Origin: Vairimorpha necatrix
Taxonomy: Eukaryota
Length of the DNA stretch: 64,000 bases
Assembly: GCA_036630325.1 (NCBI GenBank)
Contig: CP142732.1
Coordinates: forward strand, 1,116,001-1,180,000
Reading direction: 5' to 3'
In this document: positions 12,001 to 30,014 of the stretch, in pieces
Layout: each line of letters begins with the position of its first letter
Position numbering within the stretch: position 1 is the stretch's first letter
The notes under the pieces: model-generated
Told to the model about the DNA's origin: nothing
Database searches by the model: none
What the model saw: only the letters and a program-made list of their open reading frames with translations
Program-made: the position numbers and the translations under genes

Positions 12001-12322
12001 AATTTAAAAAGAATTGTAGATTATAATTTTGATCAATATTTTTAAATAAAATGTTTAGTCCTTTTTTTAAAGCAGTAATTAGAATTCCTTCTACGTAGTT
12101 TATTTCTCCATTTTCTATTGCATAAAATCCTGATAGATTTCTAATATCAGAAATTTCTCTGGAGTCGATTATTATTAGATTTTTAATAATTGATTTTAGA
12201 AATCTTGTTTTTCCAATTTCTCCGTAAATGCAAATTGGTATTTTTAGATTTTTGTAAGATTCCATGTCTTTTAGGAGATCTTTGTAATTTTTTATAAAAT
12301 TGTGCGTTAAGTCTTCGTTCAT
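3071..12322 (-). CDS. MDN1: Midasin (Rea1/Mdn1) AAA+ ribosome-maturation ATPase
   Basis: Tandem AAA modules (GETGVGKT, GDTSTGKT, GETGIGKT, GEPGVGKT with LDE(I/L)NL Walker B), long linker, D/E-rich tail, GKKLNMKKLIPYIAS.YRKDKIW and C-terminal MIDAS DNSKS. Confidence 0.96.
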   Translation of the reverse strand: MNEDLTHNFIKNYKDLLKDMESYKNLKIPICIYGEIGKTRFLKSIIKNLIIIDSREISDIRNLSGFYAIENGEINYVEGILITALKKGLNILFKNIDQNYNLQFFLNSVIKNRKIVNNKNEEIFAEKNFNIFFTSKEKFKNNDIYFLGPVNYTLFKYPKKLENIMENVIHLLNSNVNTKCDHNKNMDCNKFCMSGNFDCYNGSTLCLSKQTNLRIFHYKKIFQLHKLLDEKILNSHEARLEFYDKLVTLFLNHDSEELLSTLNLNYFPDVVIFDFNIVKTYAYKLAIRNILNNIKMKKYSLLIGETGVGKTSLVQYICNNSRKYFDQEINLKVVNMSPDVDGYDLIGGYGSFDIEKRITDLYNKHLISKPKIFDNKILIKDLKEKVNDEEVDFLEKCIQNKTNFIWKDGILVEAMKNGFWILLDEINLCNDETLGMIDSLLSKKEVINYERKNVEKIEIHKNFMLFACMNPGNDHGKKNFISHNFNYVTFYDFTSNIFDIKAVIANYVQNILEEKEIEKLSEIFYEIKQGIRNKELTNKIEPLISGRTLIRCLNAIKNNRNINIMDIFSVFILTQFDLQSRSVIYSKLSSLFSSIENKILPTYEDCGYILTPKTQIMMYDLKISILLNCPILLQGDTSTGKTSIIFYLANKQNRKVIRFNNHEHTEASDYLGNYIATPKGIKFKESVFIEAIRKGWWVILDELNLAQSDVLEVLNRLLDDNKEIYLNQNDELIKAHPDFRLFATQNIEYGGRKGISKAFRNRFIEIFFGEKTDLELLEILHIKTKLPKSFCTNMIKIYTKLKNLRNIDSLMTLRDLFKWANRIPKTMFEVYEIGLSIIYERQRNYLDKEKVLDIFREVFNKLEKFNFDYSENDIFRIDNELIANISKDIILTPSLLKIIKLLKAAIFCKEPILLIGETGIGKTKICEVLAKYLNRNFVFTNMHSGIESSDFTGNFTLDQGKIEWKNGPLIEAVKNGHFFLIDEINLAEDAVLERLNSLLEDKREIFVTEIDENFRAHDDFIIVATMNPGNDFGKRELSPALRNRFTEIYYDLPNEEIHKIFDMMLIKHGIQRPVFYENMIKTKSSLRNYELFCEFYKSMKQKVPGVVKIRNDISDATISKEAYQLAFTSGHKTTKDEYNSEFNLGKNDEKYFDTSDFKETEDFIILNSFCISKSCHVSFDFQNQTTLYNLNQILRALVVQKGLLLEGEPGVGKTSIIYNLSKLVNKKCIRINLSEQTELSDLVGTYLPVKNGIKFVKSQFTQALENGDWIILDEINLCSQSVIEGLNSVLDYRRKLVLSECIINVHSDTKIFATMNPYNNLNGRKILPKSFVDRFVSIYMRQYTKEDIKNILEKLFIEYKYYEKVNLRENIKRNLCPVTTGKINYKVDENKFQLGNVRIQNYNYDVIEQNKKDKSLNLHEIHRSMKLDENNISDLSKRKSKNDISDYVLIHSQLPQLEIILSALLKNIPVIITGGFGKSSLINFISNLFNLQYFDFMCHKEIDTSDLLGQYHKSDEGTFLWRNSLFIENILKGSLIVLHNPELIEKSIFDRCNSLFESDRSINIYEKGIDTEININNKTKFILLVDNLIDLSPAIIDRCYVVELSDKISYIDAWKIFYRNRQIYKNHLNDQESLKKYQESHKYDAYVQNQESLKDNPYVKNQNYVQDQESLKYDSYLKDQESLKYDAYIKYDPYANRLCLKDNPYANDQNYEQDRVCLKDDAYVQNQESLKDNPYLKDRVCLKDESTKKMKLSGNGDSTNINFEDFKYKEFVDTKDFDISYRKFQSFSITPKFLYRNLTNIYNEILHKNIENMFRFKKKEIEFDTSKIKYIEFYKKIKFNINRGENDKEKILNMRNTHNLTDNEKCITFIKNMNLEIIYNKNEHQETKLKNPIITSTTNNNTNLSMFNIIEDNTTSTRNINTRKKNSLKDTCILNVPTNLQELKETILSSLNSKSLKDIPNLKDLCTTLSQFCLSFTTNFDPEYFTMLQSFQEDPLSYYKDYITFLKYKKENEILEDIYENIKSLYKYGRGEIRDLVSNLEEINTNFYNEILIINKKLDRDFYKFKKMFLNLDLCSYLLDIQVVELFEEFSDLLDYYLIYLLEERWKTNKCNGSCKQNDKNIIHEENDKSLIHVKNNIHVNDVSKDNLVHEEEDHVKNIIPGDEDLKNILIHVEDVFKDFVHDLYQEYQKIEVPLKSLTYKNLVATCLVNQDFIKYLKDLQYGEFGSYMCKILYSLTNKKSLDISNLVLEACLYNPIIKDTDKIDRISIPEKYINECLTDIFKIREISYILDTRVNIIHFTDKFIKTFINESEVNKYTNIDASINSNMIIGDYPLFTKQDILLDKINDYMSNNKINKNLLDGLDTSSYLKQEYKKKDQIYKELVKYYKNPDSLSWPINYKYFIFLEIHSFTKDLAERYFLDCQVYEFNDRMKFATEKSLRNNNNLMYNLVLQYKAFDIEKLTLKKINESKTKLKREPKLYSKIRKELVDFLSLPVTNILDLKFDKPGCCCKETKIEEIMYKFVDKNETNCICERFINLSEKINRSQITSILETHEILHGNNDEIKEDQNYIIHTDNIIKKNDIFTRDKILDIFYGRNVVDKFSYPEICLSKVINKITDDSSHLRLINLALNFPFPPFLYFIFNFADEDEVEYEDGTGIKGGTGEKNISDKIEEEDEISNEYCENEDIQEEDGIDLENEGNMSSVEDEEDEKNETGVDGNEESSGQSDESSEQSSEHKESNERSDEQEEQSDEGHGESSENIENGYEEELNEEESNEEELNEEKPNEKDFILEEDVQEIYNNILTDYKYKEGKLNQNQTCNEALDYERRVFGELQEEALCPGEGPQEIEGNQDQGDKNPQDQIINISYKESYSEKLVLMLRNILENNKQNKYKGDYKSGKKLNMKKLIPYIASDYRKDKIWMKRKKNDKKEYCVRLFIDNSKSMYSQEMIDTLLILSSRLKNSFKALNIPVEIYRFGETKCQCEINKMTFTDRETNVDFIEEYEEGINIILTDGIFQKTGFYNKNFLIILIDKNDIMNMSKVSVTEGNVFIQKYIELFSMKYCIIRDLEELESTFILALKELLQ
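7090..7440 (-). repeat. In-frame coding minisatellite inside midasin (QESLK / YDAY / DNPY units)
   Basis: Repeated plus-strand agactttcttgat and atatggattgtctttt; the peptide repeats are visible in the ORF. Confidence 0.9.
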
Positions 12323-13194: not shown

Positions 13195-13374
13195 TGTCGT
13201 ACCTCCTGCGGAAGTACAACTCCAATAAAGATAAGTTTTGAGTAAATAGTTTATTTCTCTTATCTTCCATACCCCTAAGTATGGAATTTTCTTTTATAGT
13301 TTTTTTTGTTTGTTTACAGGGTAAACAAATCAAGAAATGTCAAAAATGATATGTTTGACATGTGGGATACCACA
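13195..13374 (-). repeat. 3' LTR
   Basis: Identical by eye to 17111-17290. Confidence 0.97.
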
Positions 13375-13391
13375 TCCTACCCTCTTCTTTT
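13375..13391 (-). other. Polypurine tract (AAAAGAAGAGGGTAGGA on the minus strand)
   Basis: Purine run abutting the 3' LTR and overlapping the pol stop codon. Confidence 0.85.
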
Positions 13392-16300
13392 AATGTCCTT
13401 TATGTGGATCCAGTTGCCTCCTTCTTCTACTTTAACCCAGTTTCCTTTCTTCCCAACCTCTTTGATCGTACAGGGTCTTTTATATTGTTCATCCATTTTC
13501 CCAGCTTTGAAATCTCTTACAAATACTTTATCATTTATTTTTAATTTTTTATCGTTATTCTGGTTCAGTGTGGCTGGAACTGATTTGTATTTTGGTTCCT
13601 TTAGGTTGCTTTGTCGTCTGAATGGGTCAAAAAAGCTGTATTGTTTCTCTAATTCGAATGGAGAACATCCAATAGTTCTTTTGTAATTTACGTTAAGTTT
13701 AATGTTAATTTTATTTGTTATGTCGTTGATGTTATTTAGCTTGTTTATCCTTAGACATTCAGCTATTATACTGTTTTGCCTTTCTGCCATTCCGTTGCTT
13801 TGTGGATGGTATATTGGAGTGTTAACGAGTTTAATTCCTTTACTTTTCTCATATTTTTCTCTGAGTTTTTCTCCGGTAAATTGTGTGCCATTGTCCATGA
13901 TAATTTTTTCTGGCTGTTGAAATTCTTGTATCCATTTATCTATACATTTTATTATTGTATCTTCCGTTATGTTATATAGAAGGTATACCCTTGAAATTCT
14001 TGAGTAAACGTCTGTTATGCAAAGGTAATAAGCCTTATAATGGATTGTATCATGTTCAAAATTTTCAAGTTCAAATGGTCCAAATATGTCCATGGCTATT
14101 GTTCCGTAAATTTTATCAGATTCGATCTGTAATTTCTGAGTTTTGACTTTCTCTTTCTTATTTAAGTTACACATTCTGCAATTTTTTGTTATTGCTATTA
14201 TTTTGTTCTTTAATCCAATTATGTTGTAGAAAGGAGAGAGATTCTTGTTTAATACTACGATTCCTGGGTGGCCGGCTAGTTCATGTATTTTTGTTAGAAA
14301 ATTTTCTGCTTCGGTGTTTTTGATCATTATTTTGTCATCTTTATTTCTTTCCCAGTTTTCCTTTCCGGATTTATCGTCTGATATTTTTTCTACATATTGT
14401 TCTATTATATTCGTAAGGTTATTTCCATGTCTGACATTTTCTATTTTAAAACATCTTGATAGGTAGTCAGCTACTGAGTTATTCTCTCCTGCGATTTGTT
14501 TTATGCAGTAATTGTGCTCTATCATCATCGCGTCCCATCTTTCTATTCTTCTGCTTATTTTGCTTTTAAATAGACAATTCCTGTTATCTGTATAGATTTC
14601 GACGTAATTTCCGAGTACTATGTTTCTGCACTTATCCATCGCGTATACTATTGCAAAGTATTCTTTTTCCACTATTGTATAATTTCTTTCAGTTTTATTA
14701 AATTTCATGCTTATATTTAAAATTATTCCGTGTTCTTGTGATAGTACTGCGCCCATTCCTAGTTCAGAGGCGTCGCAATGTAGTGTAAATTTTTTACTGT
14801 AGTCTGGCAGTACTAGATGGCTATTGTTCTTTAGTGTACTTACTAATTTGTTTATTATTAGATTGTCTTCTTTTGTTAGCTTGACTTTTTTTTCGTTTCC
14901 TTTTAGCTTTTCGGTTAAGCTTAGAATTTCTAGACTTAAGTTTGGAATGTATTTTCTGTACCAATTAAATATGCCAATTATTTTTTGCAGGTCTTTTTTA
15001 GTGTGGCATTTCATGTTTTCTGTTAGTTTACAGTCTTTCGTGAGAGGGTACATTTTTCCGTTAAAAATTCTTGTTCCTAGGATTTCGGTGTCCTTTGTGC
15101 AAAACTCTGATTTTGCGAAATTTACATTTACATTGTAATGTTTCAATCTTGTGAACAGTTCTTTAAGCGTATTGAGGTGTGATTCGTAGTCCTTTGTGGC
15201 AATTATTATGTCGTCTATATATACTGAAATGTTATTTATCCCGAAAAGTATTTTGTTCATGATTTTCTGAAAAGCTTTTGGTCCATTTTTTAATCCAAAA
15301 GGAAGTCTTTTGTACCTGAATGTTTTACCAAATATCGAAAATGCTGTCCATTTTCTGCTATTTTTTGCTAGGAGTAATTGATTAAACCCGTTTGTCAAGT
15401 CTAATTTGCTTATTACTTCGCTTTTACCAAGTTGATAAATAATATCGTCCATTTTGGGTATTATTTCCACTTCATCTTCAACAAAGTTATTTATTTCTCT
15501 ATAGTCTACTATTAATCTCATTTTCCCATTTTTCTTTTTCTTAAAAAATGCGGGACTTGTGTATCTTTCATTACATTCTTCTATTATGTCAGCGGTTATA
15601 AGTCGTTGTATTTCGGCTATTGCATCTTCTTTAAAGTTTGATGGTACGGCATAGTTAATTTTCTTACATTTTATGTCGTTGTTTGAAACTTGTAATTTAA
15701 CGTGATCTGTGTTTATAGGACAATTTTCTTTGATTTCTCTTTTATAATTATCTATAATTTCCCTAAGTCTTTCTTCTTCCTTAGTGATAAGTATTTTTCC
15801 TGGGGGTTTTTTGAGTTCTGTTTCTTCTGCATTTGTTTTCATATTTACGGTTGCGTTGTTCCAGATTATTTTCTTTCTTGTAAAATCTAATATAATATCG
15901 TTTCTCGATATGAAATCTCTACCAAGTATAATATTGACTGGTAGGTTTTTTAATAAGTAAAATTCGATCTTGCATGTCTCGTTTTGATCCTTTAATTTTA
16001 AGTCGAGTTCTATTGTAGTGTTAGTTTTTTCACTAGATTTATTACCGAACATTACCTGGATCTCTTTGTTTTCTCTAATGGTGATGTTCCATTGTTCTAC
16101 GAGGTCTGCTTTTATAAAGTTTAATCCTGCTCCGCAGTCTATAGTTCCTGTTGACTCATGTTTTGTGTTGATTATGAGTGGGATATCGAGTTGTTCGACA
16201 ATGTTAGGATTTTCTAAAATAACATAGTTTAAAGAGTTTTTATTTTCCCTGGGCTCTGAAGTCTTTCTCGTTGTATTTTTTAAATTTTGATTGGTATCGG

Positions 16301-17186
16301 GAACTACTGTCTTTTTGTAGTTGTTGAATTTTTCGTGTTTTACTTTGCTCATATTCGATCGATTTGTTTCATTGCTTTGCCCGCAGTCTCTCGTTGTATG
16401 TCCCAAAGTTTTGTGGACTTTACACCATTTTTTCATGAATCTTATACCTGAGGTGTTATTTAGCTTTCTCGGTATGTTAAATCTTGTTATTATGTTTTCT
16501 TCAATTCTTTTTAGGGCTGGTATGATTTCGGGTAGTGTTTCGAAGTTTTGTTCCTCGAGATATCTTACTGTTTCTAAGCCTAGTCCTCTGTATAGAGATT
16601 CCTTTGATCTTCGTTCATATTCTTTCATGCTACAGTTGGATACTTTACTGTAGATAGTTAATCGATTCATGATTTCGTTTACATAGTCGTCGAAGAAGAT
16701 GTGGTCAGTCTGTTTGAGATTACTCAGTTCTGCTATTAAGTTCTCGACCCTTTTCTGTGAAAATACTTTGGACATGATGTATTTTTTGTTCTCTTCATAA
16801 TCATCTTTCAATTTGGTTTTATCTATAATCTGATCTTCTATAAGATCGTATAAAAAGAGCCTTTTAGTTTCTTCATTCCATTGGTTCCTTTGGAAAATTT
16901 CTTCGATCTTTTTGAACCATCCTAGTAGATCGATTTCGAATATGTCGTTGATCAGTTCTATATTCTTAGTGATTCCTAGATCCACTTCACCTGTCTTAAT
17001 TCTTATGGTGACTACTTTTGTTTCTTGAATTTTGGAGTTGTGCCCTGCGATTTCTCTTCCTCGCGTGGGTGGGAGTTCATTATATTTGTACTCTCTTATT
17101 GAATTCAATATGTCGTACCTCCTGCGGAAGTACAACTCCAATAAAGATAAGTTTTGAGTAAATAGTTTATTTCTCTTATCTTCCAT
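13377..17186 (-). CDS. Single-ORF Gag-Pol polyprotein
   Basis: First ATG at 17186 (ggggtATG); Gag knuckle CKVHKTLGHTTRDC; protease IDCGA; RT LPFGLKN and YIDD; RNase H CDAS; integrase H..GH/CRMC, MD, DNG and NGMAER; no stop or frameshift. Confidence 0.95.
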   Translation of the reverse strand: MEDKRNKLFTQNLSLLELYFRRRYDILNSIREYKYNELPPTRGREIAGHNSKIQETKVVTIRIKTGEVDLGITKNIELINDIFEIDLLGWFKKIEEIFQRNQWNEETKRLFLYDLIEDQIIDKTKLKDDYEENKKYIMSKVFSQKRVENLIAELSNLKQTDHIFFDDYVNEIMNRLTIYSKVSNCSMKEYERRSKESLYRGLGLETVRYLEEQNFETLPEIIPALKRIEENIITRFNIPRKLNNTSGIRFMKKWCKVHKTLGHTTRDCGQSNETNRSNMSKVKHEKFNNYKKTVVPDTNQNLKNTTRKTSEPRENKNSLNYVILENPNIVEQLDIPLIINTKHESTGTIDCGAGLNFIKADLVEQWNITIRENKEIQVMFGNKSSEKTNTTIELDLKLKDQNETCKIEFYLLKNLPVNIILGRDFISRNDIILDFTRKKIIWNNATVNMKTNAEETELKKPPGKILITKEEERLREIIDNYKREIKENCPINTDHVKLQVSNNDIKCKKINYAVPSNFKEDAIAEIQRLITADIIEECNERYTSPAFFKKKKNGKMRLIVDYREINNFVEDEVEIIPKMDDIIYQLGKSEVISKLDLTNGFNQLLLAKNSRKWTAFSIFGKTFRYKRLPFGLKNGPKAFQKIMNKILFGINNISVYIDDIIIATKDYESHLNTLKELFTRLKHYNVNVNFAKSEFCTKDTEILGTRIFNGKMYPLTKDCKLTENMKCHTKKDLQKIIGIFNWYRKYIPNLSLEILSLTEKLKGNEKKVKLTKEDNLIINKLVSTLKNNSHLVLPDYSKKFTLHCDASELGMGAVLSQEHGIILNISMKFNKTERNYTIVEKEYFAIVYAMDKCRNIVLGNYVEIYTDNRNCLFKSKISRRIERWDAMMIEHNYCIKQIAGENNSVADYLSRCFKIENVRHGNNLTNIIEQYVEKISDDKSGKENWERNKDDKIMIKNTEAENFLTKIHELAGHPGIVVLNKNLSPFYNIIGLKNKIIAITKNCRMCNLNKKEKVKTQKLQIESDKIYGTIAMDIFGPFELENFEHDTIHYKAYYLCITDVYSRISRVYLLYNITEDTIIKCIDKWIQEFQQPEKIIMDNGTQFTGEKLREKYEKSKGIKLVNTPIYHPQSNGMAERQNSIIAECLRINKLNNINDITNKINIKLNVNYKRTIGCSPFELEKQYSFFDPFRRQSNLKEPKYKSVPATLNQNNDKKLKINDKVFVRDFKAGKMDEQYKRPCTIKEVGKKGNWVKVEEGGNWIHIKDIKRRG

Positions 17187-17290
17187 ACCCCTAAGTATGG
17201 AATTTTCTTTTATAGTTTTTTTTGTTTGTTTACAGGGTAAACAAATCAAGAAATGTCAAAAATGATATGTTTGACATGTGGGATACCACA
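17111..17290 (-). repeat. 5' LTR containing TATAAAAG (17207-17214) and the Gag ATG
   Basis: Identical to 13195-13374. Confidence 0.97.
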
Positions 17291-19369
17291 GATTCACATT
17301 GAAAACATTAAAATTATAAATAAAAAACCGTATACGAAAGGCGCAAAAAAAAAAAACTAAGGCAAATAATTCAAGTCAAGAGGCTACAATTTTCTAGAAA
17401 CTATAATTTCTAACATGACAAAAAATATTCTAGCAGTCTATTTTGAGTGTTCTCTTTAGTCTTACATGCTATTCGTAATTGTCGTTTGACTTCGATAAGA
17501 ATATTATACCTTTTTTAGCAGTAAAAAAAGGTTAAACATTTACGTAGGAACTAAAGACTCTTCGATTACGATCCTCGTCTGATAAATGCTGTCAGATTTT
17601 TATTTCGTAATTTAATAAATTTGCCGCATGACTTTCTCTCCGGGACCAATATCGCGTCCAAAAAATTTATGAAAAAAAAAAAATTCTGGATAATTGCATA
17701 CACCAAATTAAATATAATACTGACGGGAAGAAGAACAATTATATGTATAACGCAGGCGACTCTACTAATCACCTCCCCCAACTTTTATGGATGTTTTTAC
17801 GGTATTTCACGTAATATTGGTCAACCTGTTACATGTGAACTAAATTTAGTGTATATGAGACAATTTTGCTCTACTTCGTCTAGTCTCTTTTTTCGAAAAA
17901 TTTTTATTAATATGCGCCATCAAAAGACTTTGAAACCCCCAAGTAGTACTATACATATCAAAAAGTAACATTTAATTTACATTATTTCGGCCGTAAGGTG
18001 TGTTTTAAAGCCTTAACTAAATTTTCGTATAGCTTGCTACGCACAAGTTTCATGCGCTAACATTTTATATCATTTGAGAAGGTCCAACCTAACACTATTC
18101 CAGAAAATTTAATGTTGCTAGTTGGAATATGAACACAATATTTTATGTATCAACAAAATGCTTCAAATACTAAAAATAAATTTTTTTTGTTCGGTAATAG
18201 TTAAAAAAATTGTAAGTTGAGAGATAATCTAAATATTTAGACAAGATCAGGAATAGGCCTATTCGAAAATAATGACAATCCATTAAATAAAACATCATTT
18301 GTAGTATAATATAACAGGAAAGTAAGCTTACGATTGAAAGAAGAGAAAAGAGTTAGGTAAAATCGACTAGAAGAGGAAAAAGAATATAAATTAAGAAAAG
18401 ATCTAGATTGAACGGCTTATACAAAATAAAAATTACAAAAATAAATAAATCTCGTGGTATATAAAAATTTTAATGTTGATAATTTAAAAATTTAATTACT
18501 AGTCTAAAAAAGTGGTACTATATCATAAAAAGATATTTAGGAAGACAGGTGGTTCGTAATCAATAGACGAATGTACAAATATTAATATAAATAACAGACA
18601 CGAAAATTCAATGCGCCGTGTAAAAATTATATTAGTTTGGCAATAAAATCAATAATACTATAGATCTCTTAAGAACAGAAAAAATGTAGAAAACCACAGT
18701 GGAAAGAATTACGACATGCTAATAAACACAAGAGATGTATTAGAACTACAAAAAAAAATTTACATAAAAGATAAAAAACTCCGCTTAAATTTGTATGTAA
18801 ATCTAAGAATGGTGCAAAGAATTTAAATTTCTAACTAAAAAAAATATGGTTGGTGTATTATAACGTGAAGAATTTCCTGACTATAACTAATTTTAGTTTA
18901 AATAAATTTTTAAAAAAAAAATAATCATAAAACGAATTTTTTAATTACAAAAAAAGAGTTTGAACAATTGACAATGAAAATTTTAGACAAATTCGCTTTA
19001 AAAATGAGACATTGTTAAAAACAAGCTAAAAAACGCACAGGGGAAATTTTGTTTGGCAATAATGAAAAAGAAGCTAATCTAATCCAATGACAGGAAAGGT
19101 CCCAATAGTCTTGATGAATATATATATAGGCCGTCTTGTAACCAATCTTAGATAAATTTTGTCGATCCATACACATTTGTACAAAAAAGACAATGAAAGA
19201 ATGTGGACGATTGGAAACAACATACACCAATTAGAAAGAATTAAAAATCGAAGGTTTTCAAATCTAGTACGTTTTAGTTATTATACCGGGGGTTTGAACG
19301 TATGCTTGAGAATTTAATATAATCTTTGTTTTTTTAAAAATTAATTTTATTAAAAATTCGATTTCTTTT

Positions 19370-20960
19370 TTAATTAGTCTCAATCAATGGTTTGGTCTGA
19401 AATTTATTTCGAAATATGTATATAGACGACTGTGACATTATAAAAATAAGTTTTTTTTTTGAATCAGACGAATTTACTTTTTTTTTTAATTGTAAAACAC
19501 ATTCATTTTTTCTAAATAATATCTATTTCTAGAAACATTAAAGATTATATCTTGTGTTTTACCAATAAAAAAAAGCCAGAAAAAAATTAAACTTGCAAAA
19601 AAACAATATAAAAGAAGTGGTTAATAATGGCACCAATAGTTAACTAAACTCAGTAGATACTTCTTTGGGACTAATAGATCTCTGTAAAAAAATGTGCGAC
19701 ATTTTGATCTAGCATATTAAGAGTTTAGTTAGAAATGATATATCAATTAAAAAAAAGTTACAAAGATCGGCAAAAACAATTTAATAAAAACGAATAAGAT
19801 ATGGGGTTGTGGGGAAATTGGTTTATACTTTAAATGCCAAGATATGAGTTCTCAGTCGTCTGTGAAAAAAGAAGTTTTGACATCAAGTTCTGCCGAGTAT
19901 AATAGACTCAAAGAGGTTTTAAGATCTCGAGATAGAATATAAGATTTATAAGTCAAGAAAGGAGATGATAAAAAATAAAGTATATTGCCAATTCCTGATT
20001 TCGTTACATATACTATAGTAAAAAAAGACGAGGCATTTTTTTTAGGAATCAAAAAAAAAAATTGCCAGTCTAATAGACATATCAAAAAGCCACAACGAAT
20101 GTAAAATAATATAATTAATGTAACAGCGAGATGAATCTATATTTTGGCAGTTAATAAGATTAAATATGTGGGGGAAATGCTTAAAAAATAGACAATATAC
20201 AATACATTGTTGAAATTATAAAAAAACTTAATTTTAAAAACGTTGGATAAATCTATTAATTAAGAAAATTGTGCTTGATTACAAGTAGAATTAAACATAT
20301 AAGTGTAGCACGAACATATCATCAAAAAAGAAAAGGTATTATTGGTGTTATGAATAAAATATAAGGAATACAAAATGTGAATAAATGTTTAAAATACACA
20401 AATTATTGTACCTTGAGATATATGAACTATATTTGTTGTATTGGTAAGAAGGTTTTTTGTATTTACTGTGTTATATTAGCACAAGGGGATATTATGAAAA
20501 ATGTCATTTAAAACAAACAAATCTTAAAGTAATTACATTTAAAAGATTTATGTCGTAATTTAAAACAAGAGGAAAGTCACGGACAAGAAAAAGGAGTTTT
20601 GTGATGATAAAATGAGGATGCTTTGTAGTATGCTGAGCATTTATCATAGCAATATAGATGATAAATCTGATTTTTAACCGGGGAGTTGGACGAGGCTGCA
20701 TTATAAAAAGCAAATGGAATTATTTTAAGGTCAGGCGAACGAATGATTTGAGAAAAAACTTTTTAATTCTCATATTGTTGTAAAACGTTTTCTATTCAAG
20801 CTGTTATGATATAACAGAATTATTTATACTGGGTGTTTTAGAAAAAATACAGAACGTAGTCTTAAAGAATCAAAAAATCAGAGCGTCAAACAATATAAAC
20901 ATGTGGGTTTAATGAAATATTAAAGGAAGATTTAGGATTGTCTTTTTTGTTAAAGTACAT
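19370..20960 (+). pseudogene. Probable decayed gene of unknown family (copy A)
   Basis: Purine-rich coding-like sequence conserved with copy B but broken by stops; strand and limits are inferred. Confidence 0.4.
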
Positions 20961-21161
20961 AATAAAAAAAACTAAGGAAAGGATTTAAGATCCAATAGTT
21001 AAAGTTTATAATGTTGTAAAACGTAGAATACCGTTGAAAGGGGAATGACATTAGTCATTCGTTTAAATATTATTGTAAATACTAATTGATAATATTTAAA
21101 GAGAAAAGTTTTTGCAACTTATAAAATATTTTTATTTATGTCAGCTCAATAATTTTTATTT

Positions 21162-21605
21162 TTAAATAAAAGGCGTACTATATAAAAGAACATACAAATC
21201 ATTAACTAACAAACATAAAATATAAATGAGACCTATTTCTAAAGATATTAAAAATACAACTAAAAATCCTTTTAAAAAAACCCATAATATTGAACGAGTT
21301 TTCTTGGTAGTATTTTGTTCTTCTATTTGTTTAGCTTCGCTTGGCGAGATTTTTTCTTTTATACTAGGTTTGGTGGGTCTCTCGCCCTCTTGTGTACCTT
21401 CAGAAGAATCGGAAGTACTTGTACCAATTTTTTCAGAGCCATTTTGGAGTCGTGTTGTTTTAACTCCAAATATTCTGTCGCCAGTGGTATAAAACACTTT
21501 TTCAATATTTTCTGTTCTTCTTTCATTTTCATTTTCTGTCATTTTCCTTACATCTTCCTGGAAATTTGATATACAAATTTTAAAAAATATAATTATTATA
21601 TACAT
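21162..21605 (-). CDS. Orphan protein with hydrophobic N-terminus and C-terminal TM segment
   Basis: 147-aa ORF; a disrupted paralog at 25506-25974 supports a coding origin. Confidence 0.75.
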   Translation of the reverse strand: MYIIIIFFKICISNFQEDVRKMTENENERRTENIEKVFYTTGDRIFGVKTTRLQNGSEKIGTSTSDSSEGTQEGERPTKPSIKEKISPSEAKQIEEQNTTKKTRSILWVFLKGFLVVFLISLEIGLIYILCLLVNDLYVLLYSTPFI

Positions 21606-21884
21606 AGTCTAATAATGGACATTTTTTTTATCAATCAAAGGAGTTTGTATTATTTAAGGGGAACTCCTTTATTTATCAACATTATAAGAATATTTGTTTA
21701 TTAAAATGTAAATTCGCTTCATAAAGGAGGTTTGCTCCCCAGCGATACAAGAAAAATAATTATAAAATAAAATATCGAAAAAAAAACACGTTTACATACA
21801 CTTTCTTTTATTTTGATTTTAAGTGTCAAACTCCTTTTTTTAAAAGGGGTAAAAAGTATTTAAAAAAAAAAAATTTAGAATTCA

Positions 21885-22109
21885 ATGAATTTCTTAAAGT
21901 CAAAGATCTCAATTATCTGCTTTTTATTGTTAATAAGATCTAAAGAACCATCAACTCAAGAAAATGATGAATTTAGTCAAAGTTTAGCAAATATTGTAAA
22001 AGCTCAAGTGATCAAAGAAATTAAACAATTAGAAGATGAAGGACAAAAAGCGGTGAAAGATACAACAGAAGGATTAATTGGTAGTCAAAGTGGTACATCT
22101 TCAGATTAA
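21885..22109 (+). CDS. Small secreted protein (74 aa)
   Basis: Signal-like MNFLKSKISIICFLLLIRS; paralogous 5' end at 26256. Confidence 0.75.
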   Translation: MNFLKSKISIICFLLLIRSKEPSTQENDEFSQSLANIVKAQVIKEIKQLEDEGQKAVKDTTEGLIGSQSGTSSD

Positions 22110-23689
22110 AACGCTAAAAACCTAAAGATTTATTGACAAATAAATTCTTTTCTAAAAGCTATAATTTTGTTTATTTTTATATGCTACTAGCGTACGTTTT
22201 CCTTGTTTTAAAAGCGAATTTATTTAATATGTGGTATTATAATTGCCACAAACAAATTATTTTTTATTTCTTTATAATTTACATTTTTGGAAATAAACCA
22301 TTCGACTGATCCATTTCAAGAATTAATTCGTTTTTTGATTTCAACCCTCACCCAAACAATCAGGATGAGAAAAAACAACAGGAAAATTAGTAACTATTAC
22401 CAATGGGATACAATCCCAAGGACAAGTGAGGACGCTATGAAATTTTTATCCCCACTCAAATGATCAATGTAGCCATCTGCCAAACAATAAAAAAAAAATA
22501 TAAATCTTATTGAATTATATTTGCTCAGAGGAATCTCCTCAGGTTTCGTCAGTGTTTTTAGACCTTTCAATTAATTTTTGATCGTATTAAGAAAAAAAGA
22601 GATCAGTATTCTAAAGCAGTAAAAATAGAATTCTTTCAAAACAAGGATAATTAATGCGATTTAAAACATTTTAAAGACTTTAAAAAGAATGCTTTTATAT
22701 GTTTTTATTTCCTAATTTCGACACATATTATAGTTTTCTTAGATGTTGAATGTTATTTCAAATTTTTACGAAAGAGACAAATAAATTTTAAAAAAGGTAT
22801 TAGCGTATGCTTTTCCGTTTTGAAATTGGATTTTTATGATCGTGTTTGCATTTTGTTTTTTTAATTTTCTTCATTCAAGTAAAATTATAAAGGAGAAAAT
22901 AGTAATTGTAAAACACACAATTAAAGTAACCTAGAAAACCTAATTAAACATGAAATGGCCATAAAATGTAAGATTATCTTTTGTGGCAATATTTTTTTTA
23001 TCTAAAAAGAGGGATTCTAGAAAATATTTGCTATAAAGATTTTATTGTATTTTGCTTCTTAAGCGCTAACATTAAGTTGAAAAGGACATGAGAGCAATTT
23101 ATAATTGTTAAAGATAATTGTAAGTTAAGGGTTAAATTTATTTAGTATATATTCTCAACAATAATGAGTACAAAATTACATTTTATATAATCAAAAATTT
23201 AAAGCAAAAATGAGCACTACAGAGACCTATTTACAAATAGGCCATCTCCCTGGTTGTGAGCTACATGTTTTAGTTTTTTTGTTTGCATTTATAATTTTTG
23301 GAAGTTTTAACATTTTTGCAATTTTTTGTGGAAGATTTAAATAATTCTAAAAAACGACTCTGACGATATTTTGAAACTTAGTTTTGCAAAAGTAATAATT
23401 TAAATGAAAATGTTACGCCCTACATGCATCAAATTGAAACAATAAATTATTTAAGACTATAAAAACATAATAAGTAAAAAACATCACGTTTAGCTAATTC
23501 AAAATTGTGAAAAGGGAGGAAATTTAAGGCGATGATGACGATGAGATGATAAGTCAAAAATCAAAGTTTGTTTGATTTTCACATTTTATATGTTTTTTAA
23601 GCAGACTTTAGAAAATATAATTTAAATTTTAATAAAATTTTTGTTTTTTCCGCTGATTGAATTTCTTTTAAAATTATTTATACTCTAAA

Positions 23690-25300
23690 TCAGTCTCAGT
23701 TGGAGTTTTGGGCTTTTATGATATATTTAAACACGTATATAGACGACTGTTAAACAAAAATATGTTTCGTAGATGATGTCAAATGTTACTACCTCTAATT
23801 GTAAAATACATTCATTTTCTGAATAAAATTTAGTTTAGAAACATTTTATTTTTAAATTCTGTGTCTTACTAGAAGTTGAATTAAAATAAATTTTAATAAA
23901 AAAAATAATATCAAAAACGTTTCAATATATGACATTTTTAGTTGCAAAATCTCGGCTGATACTAATATAGAAGAACTCTCAATCATGCAAAGCATGCCAG
24001 CGAATTTAAATTCAGTTATATCGAGAGTTTAGGTAGACATGATATAATAGTTTTAGAATGTTATAGAGATTGTAAAAAACAGTATGAAAAGATTTCGATA
24101 AGATATATAATTGTATTTAATTCGAAGGTTTCTTAAAAAGGCATTAATATGTTTTCTCCATAGATTATGAAAAAAAAGTTTTGACATCAATTCTGCGAGA
24201 TTACTAGATGTAAGTAGGTTTTTTGAATAAAGAGGTAGAATTGCGGGGATTATCCTCGATTGACGTATAAAATTACAGACTACTTAAAGTCAAGCAAAGA
24301 GATATTAAAACCCCGAAAAGATTGCCAATTTCTTATTTCGATACAGATGGTACTAAAAGAAATAGACGCGGCATTTTTTTATAAATTAAAACAAACATTC
24401 TTTTCAGTATTATATACATTAAAGAAGCTACAACGAATGTATTAAGACACAATATCTTAACAGAGATCAAGCTATATTTTGGCAGTTAAAAATTTTGAAT
24501 ACTAAAGAAATAAATGTCTAAAATATAGATAATATATATTACATTGTTATAATTGGAATACACTAAAATATAAAACCGTTGGATAAATTTATAAACCAAG
24601 AAAATTGTGCCTGGCTGACACATAGAATTAAAACATGGTGTTCAACCTAAGTATAAAAATGTAGAGAAAAGTTTTTATTTGAAAGAAATTAAGTATCAGA
24701 AAGATGAAAATAAATGTTTTATATACACAAATTTATTGTAACACGAGGTATGTAAAATGTTTTGTTATATTGGTAAGAAGGTGTTTTGTATTTACTGTGT
24801 TATATTATCACTTGGAGAATTATGAAGAATGTCAAAAGCAAACAAAACATTAAATAATTACATTTCAAGCTTTATGTTGTATATTAAAAAAACAGAGAAA
24901 TCGGCCATGGACAAAGGAAAAGAGCTCTGTAATGATAAATGAGAGTGCTTTGTAGTATGCTGAGTATTGATTATTATAATATAGATGTATATTCCTGCAG
25001 AAAACGGGGAATTGGACGAGGCAGCACTATAAAAAAGCAAATAAAATTATATGAATGATCTAAAAATATATTTCTAGTTCTAATATTATTATAAACTGTT
25101 TTTTCTTTCAAATTTTTATGATAAAAAGAAATAATGTTATTGTGAGATTCAGAAGAAGGTACAGAATAATGTCTAGAAAAAATCGAAAAAAAAAGAATAT
25201 CAAATAATCAAATAAACGATATAATAAAACAGTAAAAAGATTTCGAATTAAACTTTTTGGCGGAATTTCATAATTTTCGTTGAATTTAGTTACAAACTAG
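23690..25300 (+). pseudogene. Probable decayed gene of unknown family (copy B)
   Basis: Homologous to 19370-20960; only short ORF fragments remain. Confidence 0.4.
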
Positions 25301-25505
25301 AAAAATAAATCGAAAAGAGAAAATTGATTTAAAAAAAAAATAAGGTTTTTAATTTTATTAAACAGAATATCGTCGAAGATAAAAAAATTAAGCAATTTTT
25401 ATTAAACTATTATTATGGTAATACCAAAAGATATTTTTTTTACTAAAAAGTTTATAATAATACGTATAGAATATTTTTTTTATGTCGGCTCAATAATTTT
25501 TTATT

Positions 25506-25974
25506 TTAAATAAACAGCCGTACAATACAAAAGAACATACAAATCATTAACTAAGAACCATAAAATATAAATTAAACCTGTTTCTAAAGATATTAAAAAA
25601 TGGAACTAATAATCCTTTTAATAAAACCCCCAATGGTGTTAGAGTTTTCTTGATATAAGTATTTTTTTCTTCTTCTATCTGTATATCTCGCTTGGCGGCT
25701 TTTCTATTTATTTACCAATTTTGGGTTTGTTTAACATATTGGAGGAACCTCCATCTTCTTGTGTATTTACAGAAGTATCGTAAAAACTTGTACCAACTTC
25801 TTTGGGATTGTTCTAAAGATGAGTTGTTTCATGTCCAGATATTTTGTCTCCAGTGAGATAATACACCTTTTTGACATTTTCACGACTCCTTTAAACTTCG
25901 TTTTTTATTTCTTTGGCTATCTTTTTCTTGAAATTTGATATACAAAATCTGGTAAATATTTTTAATTTCAACAT
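25506..25974 (-). pseudogene. Disrupted paralog of the 21162-21605 TM protein
   Basis: MLKLKIFTRFCISNFKKKIAKEIKNEV*RSRENVKKVYYLTGDKISGHETTHL*NN aligns with copy A; in-frame stops at 25891-25893 and 25813-25815. Confidence 0.85.
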
Positions 25975-26255
25975 AGTCTAATGACTGAAAATTTTCACCA
26001 ATCAAATGATGTGTGTATTAATTAAGGCGAACTCCTTTAATACCGTCAATCAAAGAAGATTTGTTTAACTAAAGGTAAATTTGCCTTTAATGTAGATTTG
26101 TTCCCTAGTGGGATAATTAAATATTTTTTATAACATCAAATTTCAAAAAACACGTTTATAAACACTTTCTACAATTTAAATTTTTTAATAATGTTAACCT
26201 CCTTATCTTTTAAAAGGGGTAAAAAGTATATAAAAAAAAAAAATTTTAAAATTCA

Positions 26256-26435
26256 ATGAATTTCTTAAAGTCAAAGATCTCAATCCTCTGCTTTTTATTT
26301 CTAATAAAATCAGCACATCCCCCAAGAGAACAAGCAGGAGAAGCAGTGGGCGACGAATCAGAAGATGTTTATCGGGCAGACCGTCAACGAAATCGCCCCA
26401 AGGTGTATGGCCATAGGAATCCTATAAGTAGTTAG
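26256..26435 (+). CDS. Small secreted peptide (59 aa, not in the ORF track)
   Basis: MNFLKSKISILCFLFLIKSAHPPREQAGEAVGDESEDVYRADRQRNRPKVYGHRNPISS*; upstream region and signal peptide shared with 21885-22109. Confidence 0.7.
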   Translation: MNFLKSKISILCFLFLIKSAHPPREQAGEAVGDESEDVYRADRQRNRPKVYGHRNPISS

Positions 26436-26525
26436 AAAAAATAGATTTATTAATGAATAAATTCTTTCTTTACTTTATTTTTATATGTAATAATATCAGG
26501 TTTTTTATTTTTTTATATTTAAACT

Positions 26526-27093
26526 TGCTAAAGAGAACTTTAGGTCCTAATTTTTGAACTGGGGTTTTTTATTTTTTTTACCACTTTTTTAAAAAAATGG
26601 AGGAAAGAATTCGAACCAGAGAAGAATTAGAAATCTACTACAAATGATTTTTTAGACTAGAACAAAACAAAACTGTACAATATATAATTTTAAATTAATA
26701 ATTACACGTTTTTAAGAGGTCTTTGTTTTATAAACAGTACTAAGAAAATGAAATTTTAATGAGTTATCGCTTATATATAATGTTTGTAGAATTAGTAAAA
26801 TTCTCGTATTACAAACGCTTTATGTCTATTCTCTTCTTCAATCGAATAATATATTTTACTAAACGTAGAAAAAGCTAAACTAATGCTAACTATAATCATA
26901 AAGAAAATATAATGAAAAACAATTACATAGTATATGATGCTTATAAATATTATTAAATTTATATTTTGCCGTATTAATAAATATTTAATTAGTTTATTTA
27001 TTTTTCTGAATTCTTCAGCGTTTTCTTTCCTCATTTTTATTAAAAAAAGACACCCCCCAGCTTAAAAATTTTGACCTAAAGTTTTTTTTAGCC
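26526..27093. mobile_element. Non-autonomous TIR DNA transposon (MITE), Merlin-like
   Basis: 38-bp inverted repeats with 32/38 matches (26527-26564 vs 27055-27092); TTTAAACT duplicated at 26518-26525 and 27094-27101; right terminus reads GG inward. Confidence 0.8.
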
Positions 27094-27278: not shown

Positions 27279-29756
27279 TTACATAAATTCTAACGGGTCG
27301 ATTTCGATATTTACACTGACTATTCTTAAATCATCCACATCATTAATTTCAAACACATCACTATAAATTTTGCAAAAATTAATAAATTCAAAATCTTTAC
27401 AAACCTTGACTTTTTCTAAAAGTTCGTTCATTTCCATAGATCCTGTTTTTACTAAAATTTCATAAAACAATACAAAATAAATTTTATATATCGTGTCTCT
27501 ATTGAGATATTCTTGCATTCTTGTATCTTGAATCTCTAAATGTTTCATTAATTTGTATTTTAACCTGCTTTTAATTCTACAATTTTGGACCGTGATTTTT
27601 CTTTCATTACAAACTACAATTCCATCTTCCCGTAATTTTTCGAGAATTAATTCAATGTTCGAATAGTCTTTATATTCCAAAGGATTTAATAAATCATTAT
27701 ACAACAGATCATATTTGATTTTTGTATAAAGAAATTCCTGAGTATTTGGAGGTTCAGCACATGTTTCTTGTTCTTCTTCTGTCATATTTCCAAATGCTTC
27801 ATCAATGTATTTCATTAATTCTTTGTAAATATTCGTGTAATTTTGCTTTATAAATTTCTTGATAATTTTATAAGCAGTGGCTTTTTTATTATATCTAAGA
27901 TAATTGAAACATTTGATTCTGTTTACGTAATTCATATAAACATTCTTCTTGTTTTTAGTTGGTATATTATCAATTAATTCATTATAATTTGTGCATAGTT
28001 TAATAATGATCAAATTACTTAATAAATCTTTAACCTTTTCTCTGTCCGTATTTTTATTAACTAAATCCTTTGTTGTATTTATCGAATAATTTTCATCAAC
28101 TAGTTTTTTCATATTTTTTTCACCATTTTCGTTTAATTTTGTTTTTTTGAAAATTTTTTCGCCTTCTTGATTTAATTTAGAATTCTGTTCAATGTCTTTT
28201 AATAATTTAGAATCTTTTACAGTTTCCTTATTCAACCCTGATTTATTAGCGTTTTGTTCATTTATTATATATTCATTTGCTTTTTCCTCATTTAAATTTT
28301 CTTTTTTTGTATATTTTTCTATTAATCCAATTTTTTCTAGATCTAAAATTTTTTTGAGTATTCTTTTGATTGTAATTGATATTTTCAAATTTTTCGTTAC
28401 ATTAGATCTTTTAAGTTTATTCAGTAAATCGTCATATTTTAGATCTTTAAATTTACAATCTTGTGTTATTGAAGCCATAACATTTAAAATGTCGATTGGA
28501 ATTATCTTAAATAAAAATTTTAAATTCATTTCAAGAAAAAAATTTTCATCCAAAATAATGTAATTATCTTCGTTTTTATTATGTAAATAATCACATAATA
28601 GGCGTATCTTTTCCTTTTCATTTGTTATATAATAATTATCTTTGATTATGAAATTTCTTGCTAATACAAATTTGTTGTATAGATTTTCTTCTGTGCTATT
28701 TTTAAATTCTATTTGTGTCCTATCTTCTGTTTCATTTAGATAATCAACAACATTTACATCTTTGTGAATAATCAAAGTTTTACATTCGTTTTTCTCTTTG
28801 ATTGTAAAAATTTTATGACCACATTTTAAAGCTGTCGACATTATCGTTTTTTTACATGGTAAGAAATTCGTATTTAGATTAATTTGAAATTGTCTTAAAG
28901 ATTCATCAGTAATTACAAATCCTTTTTTATCTTGTAACATTTGGTCAAGTGCATTCATCCTGTCTTCTACAGTTATAAATTTTTTATCTGTAAATTTTTT
29001 TTTCTCTACTACATCAGTCGATACAAAAAACAAAAGTCTTCTAATTTTGCCTATAAATATTTCTTTACATAAATATTGTTCTCTATCTAATTCGTTAATT
29101 TTTGTTAGATAGTTTAACCCTTGTCTTATTGACATCCCGAAATTTTTTTTTACATCTTCTGTTGTAATGCCCACCGGCGAATTTTTTATTAGATTTCTAA
29201 TTTGATCTAAAAGTGGTATTTCTGTACATAAATTTTCAGGAATCATTGGTGTGTCGTAATTGTCGTTTGTTGGATTTTCATATTTAAATAATAATTTTTT
29301 ATCAAGTTTAAAATAGTAAACACCACTTCCCTCTCTTTTTTGTTCTAGTACTTCGCTTCTCTTTAGTATTTTTGTAACATAAAAAATTCTTTTAGAATCC
29401 AAATTTAGTTTTTCTCGTAGTTCTGAGCTTTTTACATATTCGTCTGCGTTTAGTAAATAATCTATGACTTTGTATGGATATTCTTCTTTCCATTTATACT
29501 GCGCAAGATTTTGTTTAAAAATATTATATTTTACTCTAATGTTTAAAGAGTTGAGATCTGTCATTATTGTATTAAAATCAGTTAATTTTATTATTGTTTC
29601 GCCATTTAGATTTTTTTCTAGTTTTTCTTTATCTTTCGTGTAATATATTTCATATGAGTCGTCAACGCATAACGTGCGTATTTCTTCTTCATTAAATCTA
29701 TTAAGATTTGTTCCATAAAGTCCATATCCCAGAAATTCATTTAGATATTTTTCCAT
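27279..29756 (-). CDS. Probable TFIIIC B-box-binding large subunit (Tfc3/GTF3C1-like), reduced
   Basis: ATG at 29756 preceded by CCCA; N-terminal EFLGYGLYGT, winged-helix-like segments (LLDQIRNLIKNSPVGIT) and the T.EDR...CKKTI pattern resemble Tfc3; recognition is weak. Confidence 0.55.
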   Translation of the reverse strand: MEKYLNEFLGYGLYGTNLNRFNEEEIRTLCVDDSYEIYYTKDKEKLEKNLNGETIIKLTDFNTIMTDLNSLNIRVKYNIFKQNLAQYKWKEEYPYKVIDYLLNADEYVKSSELREKLNLDSKRIFYVTKILKRSEVLEQKREGSGVYYFKLDKKLLFKYENPTNDNYDTPMIPENLCTEIPLLDQIRNLIKNSPVGITTEDVKKNFGMSIRQGLNYLTKINELDREQYLCKEIFIGKIRRLLFFVSTDVVEKKKFTDKKFITVEDRMNALDQMLQDKKGFVITDESLRQFQINLNTNFLPCKKTIMSTALKCGHKIFTIKEKNECKTLIIHKDVNVVDYLNETEDRTQIEFKNSTEENLYNKFVLARNFIIKDNYYITNEKEKIRLLCDYLHNKNEDNYIILDENFFLEMNLKFLFKIIPIDILNVMASITQDCKFKDLKYDDLLNKLKRSNVTKNLKISITIKRILKKILDLEKIGLIEKYTKKENLNEEKANEYIINEQNANKSGLNKETVKDSKLLKDIEQNSKLNQEGEKIFKKTKLNENGEKNMKKLVDENYSINTTKDLVNKNTDREKVKDLLSNLIIIKLCTNYNELIDNIPTKNKKNVYMNYVNRIKCFNYLRYNKKATAYKIIKKFIKQNYTNIYKELMKYIDEAFGNMTEEEQETCAEPPNTQEFLYTKIKYDLLYNDLLNPLEYKDYSNIELILEKLREDGIVVCNERKITVQNCRIKSRLKYKLMKHLEIQDTRMQEYLNRDTIYKIYFVLFYEILVKTGSMEMNELLEKVKVCKDFEFINFCKIYSDVFEINDVDDLRIVSVNIEIDPLEFM

Positions 29757-30014
29757 TGGGGTTAATAAAAAGTTGTTTATTAAATTTTTGAAATGAATTT
29801 TATTGAAATGTGCCATAAGCATCTTGTCTTTTTTTATTGCCACACAATGGTTTTCTGATTTAAATCTGCTCTGCAATAGTATTTTATATGAAATTTAAAG
29901 AACTTTTTATGTTTCTGTTTTTATTAAATAACGAACAATAAATTAGAGTTGTTCATAAAACTAATATAATAACAATTATATATATTTAGTAAAACGAATG
30001 TTTAATAAATTTCT

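Follow-up and report, generated by a model that had tools for sequence, protein, structure and literature searches.

We examined a pair of very small genes in a 64,000-nucleotide stretch of the genome of the microsporidian Vairimorpha necatrix (assembly GCA_036630325.1, contig CP142732.1, positions 1,116,001 to 1,180,000 of the forward strand). We refer to this 64-kb stretch as the window, and coordinates count from its first nucleotide. The two open reading frames (ORFs), which we call ORF A and ORF B, both begin with a leader of 19 codons that resembles a signal peptide, and both are followed by a short shared block that contains AATAAA. Between these ends lie the mature parts, or payloads, which do not align with each other. 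Both coding sequences (CDSs) are at most 300 nt long and lie in well-delimited intergenic sequence, with no overlapping ORF of note. The two ORFs sit at the right-hand ends of the two copies of a segmental duplication, and the homology between the copies ends at the 3' block. The main features are (aa, amino acids):

19313..22150 (+): duplication unit A (~2.85 kb; identified with blastn and MAFFT), mostly non-coding DNA, plus a gene of 147 aa and ORF A
23628..26467 (+): duplication unit B (~2.85 kb; blastn and MAFFT), downstream of unit A across a 1.44-kb spacer
21842..21884 (+): upstream block of ORF A, with GGGG at -39..-36, the TATA-like sequence TATTTAAAA at about -28..-20, and a run of 12 A
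21885..22109 (+): ORF A, 74 aa, 225 nt including the stop codon
21885..21941 (+): leader of ORF A, 19 codons, signal-peptide-like, 9-residue hydropathy 3.27, AlphaFold helix at residues 2-20
21942..22109 (+): payload of ORF A, 55 aa and the stop codon, pI 4.5, with a Ser/Gly/Thr tail
22126..22150 (+): 3' block with AATAAA, separated from the stop codon of ORF A by 16 nt
26212..26255 (+): upstream block of ORF B, with GGGG, the TATA-like sequence TATATAAAA, and a run of A
26256..26435 (+): ORF B, 59 aa, 180 nt including the stop codon
26256..26312 (+): leader of ORF B, 19 codons, 9-residue hydropathy 3.08
26313..26435 (+): payload of ORF B, 40 aa and the stop codon, an acidic half (pI 4.1) and then a basic half (pI 11.8), mostly disordered
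26443..26467 (+): 3' block with AATAAA, separated from the stop codon of ORF B by 7 nt

An earlier reading of this stretch, made from its letters alone (the sequence-only reading), had noticed the pair and its shared ends, and had proposed that the two ORFs belong to an unannotated family of hypervariable secreted effectors. The duplication of about 2.85 kb and the presence of ORF A in protein databases are additions to that reading.

Conserved ends and dissimilar payloads

We compared the two units along their length. With blastn, 19313-19562 is 69% identical to 23628-23869, and 19950-21940 is 71% identical to 24287-26311. In a profile of identity across the MAFFT alignment, 19313-21822 is identical at 1686 of 2632 columns (64%). 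For the promoter and leader (21823-21941), 107 of 122 columns are identical (88%), which is significantly more than in the rest of the block (P = 9.5e-9, Fisher exact test). The most similar 60-nt window of the entire block, with 95% identity, spans the promoter and the ORF's beginning. Right after codon 19, identity drops to 40%, which is the level of unrelated AT-rich DNA.

Upstream of the start codon, both ORFs have a TATA-like box at about -29..-20 and a run of 12-13 A, and in both, an in-frame stop codon lies 9 nt before the ATG. The shared upstream sequence that the sequence-only reading had pointed out includes 18 nt that match exactly (21842-21859 and 26212-26229), with 0.33 matches expected by chance. 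The sole other match to these 18 nt in the window, at 26571-26588 on the minus strand, has 3 mismatches. TATA-like promoters are cited for Nosema ceranae, and adenine-rich upstream regions are pointed out for the genes of abundant spore proteins of E. cuniculi (both in an excerpt of PMC2803860). An excerpt of PMC4589312 also links high expression to adenine-rich upstream sequences.

The leaders are identical at 16 of 19 residues, as had been counted before, and at 51 of 57 nucleotides. Of the 6 nucleotide differences, 3 are synonymous and 3 are conservative (I>L, L>F, and R>K, from A to B). The first 29 nt of the two ORFs are the same; this sequence has 2 matches in the window, and none of 100 shuffles had any. 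Each leader has 2 lysines, a hydrophobic core of 10 residues, and Ile-x-Ser before the junction with the payload (Ile-Arg-Ser in ORF A). Given the -3/-1 rule for signal-peptide cleavage, the predicted cut is after Ser19. A crude filter for signal peptides is passed by just 6 of the 143 ATG-initiated ORFs of at least 35 aa in the window, including ORF A, ORF B, and two large proteins.

The 3' blocks are identical at 22 of 25 nt and place AATAAA 7-30 nt behind the stop codons. This confirms the common 3' sequence that had been reported for the pair: behind the leaders, no other local match between the DNA of the two exceeds shuffled sequences, and this one scores 35 (versus 18.4 ± 2.5, and at most 27, for 300 shuffles). 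We read the block as the context of a polyadenylation signal. We also considered a hairpin, and we rejected it: the fold is weak in A (-6.6 kcal/mol, z = -2.5) and there is no significant fold in B (z = +0.47). The 3' blocks also open short, very hydrophobic, AT-rich ORFs whose products begin with xNKFF (22133-22309, + strand, with a TTG start, and 26453-26557, + strand, with an ATG start). Because the DNA behind the 3' block is not conserved, these ORFs are probably due to chance.

The payloads, in contrast to the ends, show no sign of common ancestry. Local alignment of their DNA gives a score of 10, versus 9.2 ± 1.4 for shuffled sequences, and 156 of 500 shuffles scored as well. At the protein level, all 9 pairs of reading frames gave |z| ≤ 1.1. 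The impression that the mature parts cannot be aligned was thus correct. An alignment in all frames had been suggested to exclude that the second payload arose by a frameshift; such an origin is excluded as far as alignment tells, and so is simple decay. Point substitutions cannot account for the loss of similarity either, because nearby neutral DNA is still 64-69% identical. Instead, judging from the sequences, the payload may have been replaced, or rebuilt by insertions and deletions (indels), or it may be under very strong diversifying selection. We did not find a displaced second copy of either payload within the window. The mature parts of A and B contain no cysteines and no dibasic site (KR or RR), and neither product has an N-glycosylation sequon, an endoplasmic reticulum (ER) retention tail, or a hydrophobic segment at its C terminus.

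The duplication also contains a larger gene:

21162..21605 (-): ORF of 147 aa with a hydrophobic C terminus, divergent from ORF A
25509..25974 (-): unit B counterpart of the 147-aa gene, a pseudogene with 45% amino acid identity and 7 in-frame stop codons

No Pfam family matches the 147-aa ORF. The earlier remark that neighboring duplicated genes had decayed holds for this gene. With 7 stop codons in its copy of the gene, unit B is largely decaying DNA, in which sequence that is not under constraint decays.

Coding potential and predicted products

To score codon usage, we used log-odds trained on 9561 codons from 19 long ORFs. On this scale, true genes score 13.8 ± 7.7 bits over 55 codons and 10.1 ± 5.9 bits over 40 codons, while intergenic DNA scores -39 and -29 bits. 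The payload of ORF A reaches +28.8 bits in frame 0, compared with -47 and -49 bits in the other two frames. Its GC content at the three codon positions is.51/.35/.07.

The payload of ORF B scores +11.65 bits in frame 0, versus -5.3 and -17.3 bits in the other frames. With 51% GC overall, it ranks within the highest 0.02% of 120-nt windows. The GC content at the three codon positions is.725/.50/.30 (permutation P = 0.0004), and periodicity this strong occurs in only 3 of 1888 intergenic windows. (For the gene set of the window, GC at the third position is 0.24.) Because GC content falls from the first to the third codon position, the GC-richness of ORF B seems to reflect a product that is rich in Gly, Ala, Arg, Pro, Glu, and Asp, rather than a foreign base composition. 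We also considered whether the GC-rich stretch encodes a non-coding RNA and rejected this, as it has no Rfam match at E ≤ 1 and no tRNA. Overall, both ORFs look like genuine small genes with a signal-peptide-like leader, as the sequence-only reading had it, and the pair is probably coding.

We predicted the structure of both proteins with AlphaFold. ORF A, which was run without an alignment, is predicted to form a single helix (residues 25-68), with a pLDDT of 83-94 in the middle of the helix and a mean of 76.9. This helix is amphipathic: its hydrophobic moment is 1.93, versus 1.19 ± 0.29 for shuffled sequences, and just 10 of 1000 shuffles reached this value. For ORF B, the pLDDT is 67.7, and the only predicted element is one short helix (residues 35-45).

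Relatives and genomic setting

Within the window, we did not find a third copy of the leader, the promoter block, or the 3' block. In a tblastn search of the window, the sole significant match of each ORF is the other one (E of about 1e-8, residues 1-29), and the next match has E = 0.067. We then searched 1.84 billion representative proteins with a profile of A and B, which share only the leader, and found no further member. A protein of 1604 aa (P0002) matched profile positions 14-63 with E = 8e-4, and we dismissed it as noise; it has unrelated weak Pfam matches. In a word-indexed protein library, ORF A retrieves only itself. ORF B gave no candidate and did not even retrieve ORF A, despite six consecutive shared 5-mers, so searches of this index are incomplete. 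As a control, we ran the neighboring HTH_micro protein (described below), which found only itself among 7997 scored candidates. The libraries apparently hold no close relative, so the blanks for A and B are weak evidence. In other words, we found no relative in other eukaryotes or in distant microsporidia in the libraries that we searched, and the control shows that these searches had low power.

Other searches were also negative. The exact leader had 0 matches in metagenome contigs. Degenerate patterns for the leader gave 599 candidates in metagenomes, of which 0 were confirmed, and 303 candidates in prokaryote genomes, of which 1 was confirmed (L001, from a metagenome-assembled genome of the Acidobacteriota). 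We rejected L001 as well, because the match is just the searched word (SIICFLLLI) within a bacterial signal peptide. A search of the sequences in PDB found nothing for B, and for A the matches had E ≥ 0.15 and were mostly helical or coiled-coil entries. Pfam searches with A, with B, and with the three forward frames of the B payload found no family. In the ESM Atlas, look-alikes of A are generic single helices, and the score for B (0.83) is below the level of a lead. Between 17300 and 30000, we found no Rfam family and no tRNA. Our searches of the open-access literature did not bring up any account of two microsporidian mini-genes built in this way.

The sequence-only reading had called the pair unannotated. 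This is correct for ORF B, which is absent from three protein collections, but not for ORF A, which is present letter for letter, as a predicted protein, in the word-indexed library and in the ESM Atlas.

The window has a GC content of 22-33% (about 26%), and its long ORFs lack introns. The gene that was used as a control lies to the right of the pair:

27279..29876 (-): HTH_micro gene, with a match to the microsporidia-specific family PF17007 in Pfam (E = 2e-97)

Elsewhere in the window, there are Pfam matches to a proteasome subunit, glucose-6-phosphate dehydrogenase, and a Ty3/gypsy polyprotein. A CCC-like or GGG-like motif upstream of genes is reported for microsporidia in an excerpt of PMC2803860. 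Among 21 other, larger ORFs in the window, 13 have CCC within 15 nt before the first ATG, and 2 have GGG. AATAAA lies within 60 nt behind the stop codon for 6 of these 21 ORFs, and either AATAAA or ATTAAA for 10 of the 21. These signals are serviceable for annotating the genes of this genome. The HTH_micro match, the low GC content, and the CCC motifs are all in keeping with a microsporidian genome.

A Ty3/gypsy retrotransposon with long terminal repeats (LTRs) is at 13195-17290, and its polyprotein ORF (13377-17249, - strand) contains protease, reverse transcriptase, RNase H, and integrase domains. The LTRs are 180 bp each and 100% identical, so the insertion is recent. An ORF of 3083 aa at 3071-12322 (- strand) has internal direct repeats around 7108-7443 and 9172-10222. 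Contigs from a sequencing run of unknown kind (X1) pile up at ~23343-23400, with a summed depth of over 5000 from 23 contigs, and again at ~26583, with a depth of about 54 from 8 contigs; the background depth is 1-4. These pile-ups are dispersed repeats or AT-rich cross-matches.

Origin of the pair and alternative explanations

We think there is roughly a 50% chance that ORF A and ORF B are two lineage-specific, paralogous microsporidian genes for small secreted proteins, and that one payload was exchanged. If so, a segmental duplication of ~2.85 kb would have copied the gene for the 147-aa protein, which is probably a membrane protein, along with a mini-gene that comprised a TATA-like and A-rich promoter, a signal peptide of 19 residues, a short payload, and an AATAAA block. 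The 147-aa gene of copy B would then have decayed, whereas in the mini-gene the start codon and the leader would have survived, together with the promoter and the 3' signal. The payload between these anchors would have turned into a different coding sequence by replacement or by the turnover of indels, and not by point mutations or a frameshift. The transcript may start only a few bases upstream of the ATG. The leader would bring the nascent chain into the ER, where signal peptidase would cleave after Ser19. The expected products are an acidic amphipathic helix of 55 aa (from A) and a disordered peptide of 40 aa with acidic and basic halves (from B), with predicted masses of 5.9 kDa and 4.5 kDa. 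Their destination would be outside the parasite's cell, and they might be directed towards the host's cytoplasm or the surface of the spore or sporont.

Several observations weigh against this scenario. First, the promoter and leader are not the only part of the duplication that is unusually well conserved. There are two other islands of high identity: 20400-20520 versus 24729-24845 (82-86%) and 21136-21254 versus 25480-25600 (89-91%). The latter island (108 of 121 columns) is as identical as the promoter and leader, and it spans the 3' end of the 147-aa gene, which encodes a transmembrane segment and is dead in unit B. High local identity, by itself, thus cannot be read as selection on ORF B. 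Islands of identity may result from gene conversion instead of selection, and these two are either old gene-conversion tracts or unrecognized functional elements. Second, in the GC-rich part of ORF B, each of the three forward frames runs for 33-40 codons with no stop codon, so the open frame of ORF B proves little. Third, neither ATG has CCC or GGG within 15 nt before it, although most genes in the window carry one, and the promoter type is atypical for the window. Fourth, ORF B uses Arg codons that are rare in the window's genes (CGG, 0.42 per 1000, and CGC, 0.52 per 1000). Finally, ORF B was not found in the word-indexed library, the representative library, or the ESM Atlas.

Perhaps only ORF A works, and ORF B is a relic or a chimera whose payload was lost after the duplication and then replaced by unrelated GC-rich DNA. 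That DNA could be a fragment of another coding gene, with the codon periodicity of that gene, and the frame could be open by chance; the likeness of the promoters and leaders could have been upheld by gene conversion with copy A. Such an origin would fit with the absence of ORF B from protein collections, the three open frames, the rare Arg codons, and the islands of identity at sites where selection on copy B is implausible. The other gene of unit B is dead, and AlphaFold gives B little structure, which would fit as well. We consider this origin possible but unlikely, because the start codon, the TATA-like box, the run of A, and the AATAAA block of B are all intact, and the changes in its leader are exclusively synonymous or conservative. 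Also, the periodicity of B is in the frame that is set by the ATG, which is just one of the three possible frames. If ORF B accumulated stop codons at the density seen in the pseudogene (7 in 147 codons), then it should contain about 2.8 stop codons in its 59 codons. And the island that includes the leader is 88% identical, not nearly 100%, so any gene conversion was not recent.

The sequence-only reading had gone further and proposed a larger family, mostly without annotation, of which A and B would be the two members in view. In this family, a secretion cassette would carry many unrelated, hypervariable payloads that act on the host as effectors. The borders between the modules are sharp, and they coincide with the junction between the leader and the mature part and with the 3' signal. 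ORF B demonstrates that such ORFs escape gene calling, and small CDSs are under-called in microsporidia (as described in an excerpt of PMC4589312). In Nematocida, clade-specific proteins with signal peptides are enriched among host-exposed proteins (as described in an excerpt of PMC5423893). But there is no third leader, promoter block, or 3' block within 64 kb, and the profile search returned A itself and one unrelated protein of 1604 aa. A single local duplication fully accounts for the two copies, and the mature parts lack a cysteine framework or dibasic sites, unlike the families of peptide toxins to which the pair had been likened. We consider such a family improbable. The sequence-only reading had named the existence of only two copies as a refuting outcome, and with two copies in 64 kb and no other member among 1.84 billion representatives, the claim leans negative. 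Claims about a family or about effectors, beyond these two copies, are unsupported.

In a bolder version, the promoter and leader together with the AATAAA block would form a reusable secretion cassette in a genome without introns, into which unrelated payloads are swapped, and which would yield secreted micro-proteins across the genome that are mostly not called as genes. ORF B would then be a precursor of the cationic-peptide type. Precursors of host-defense peptides combine an anionic propiece with a cationic peptide, and ORF B, with its acidic and then basic layout, may resemble them. The basic half of its payload contains Pro and Arg. We regard this version as a long shot.

It is very improbable that neither ORF is coding, with the conserved block having a regulatory or other non-coding role in the duplicated segment and the ORFs being incidental: although A and B have no homologs or Pfam family in the libraries searched, and although their upstream region is atypical and lacks CCC or GGG beside the ATG (E. 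cuniculi ORFs without such signals are treated as likely mispredictions in an excerpt of PMC2803860), the codon scores and third-position GC content of A are those of a coding frame, conservation runs from the TATA-like box to the junction between leader and mature part, AATAAA lies just behind both stop codons, and no RNA family or tRNA was found in the region.

Among known systems, the closest in kind are the host-exposed proteins of microsporidia, as described in part by Reinke et al. 2017 (PMC5423893). Like those proteins, A and B are lineage-restricted (as far as searched), have a putative N-terminal targeting signal and no known domain, and arose by local duplication with fast divergence. 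Unlike the large families in that excerpt, which have at least 10 members per genome, we see two copies in the window. Also, A and B are far smaller (55 and 40 aa when mature), and for them, exposure to the host is hypothetical. In size, they are more like the small CDSs of microsporidia in an excerpt of Belkorchia et al. 2015 (PMC4589312), which are 78-255 bp (versus 225 bp for A and 180 bp for B). As with those small CDSs, there is a polyadenylation-type signal beside the stop codon, and one of the two was not called as a gene. The small CDSs in that excerpt are backed by a CCC-like motif, by RACE (rapid amplification of cDNA ends), and by orthologs in other microsporidia, whereas A and B have no CCC or GGG beside the ATG and we found no ortholog. 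Of the new proteins in that excerpt, only 1 has a signal peptide, whereas A and B both have a signal-peptide-like leader.

A conserved leader with an unrelated mature part is also seen in mussel MgCRP-I (PMC4558851, in part), myticalins, conopeptides, and frog skin peptides, which are secreted peptides with a conserved pre or prepro region and a hypervariable mature part. Families of this type are multigene, have cysteine frameworks or defined processing sites, and are usually intron-bearing animal genes. A and B, in contrast, are two copies with no cysteine in the mature part, no KR or RR, and no intron. Lastly, the ricin-B-lectin-like proteins of Nosema bombycis (PMC9224602, in part) are another case of microsporidian secretory genes that expanded by local duplication. 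Those proteins share a lectin domain, while A and B have no domain and their mature parts are not shared.

Overall, the locus is ordinary in kind, as it is a duplicated orphan gene for a secreted protein. The odd detail is the non-homologous, GC-rich, coding-like payload. Much of the manipulation of hosts by microsporidia is attributed to secreted proteins that are specific to a lineage, and the smallest of these can readily be overlooked. ORF B exemplifies this: it is an ORF of 59 codons that is probably coding, bears a putative signal peptide, and is absent from the collections that we searched. The pair also illustrates how, without introns, one payload may be swapped for another while the leader before it and the 3' signal behind it are conserved. 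Such swaps would offer one way for new secreted proteins to arise.

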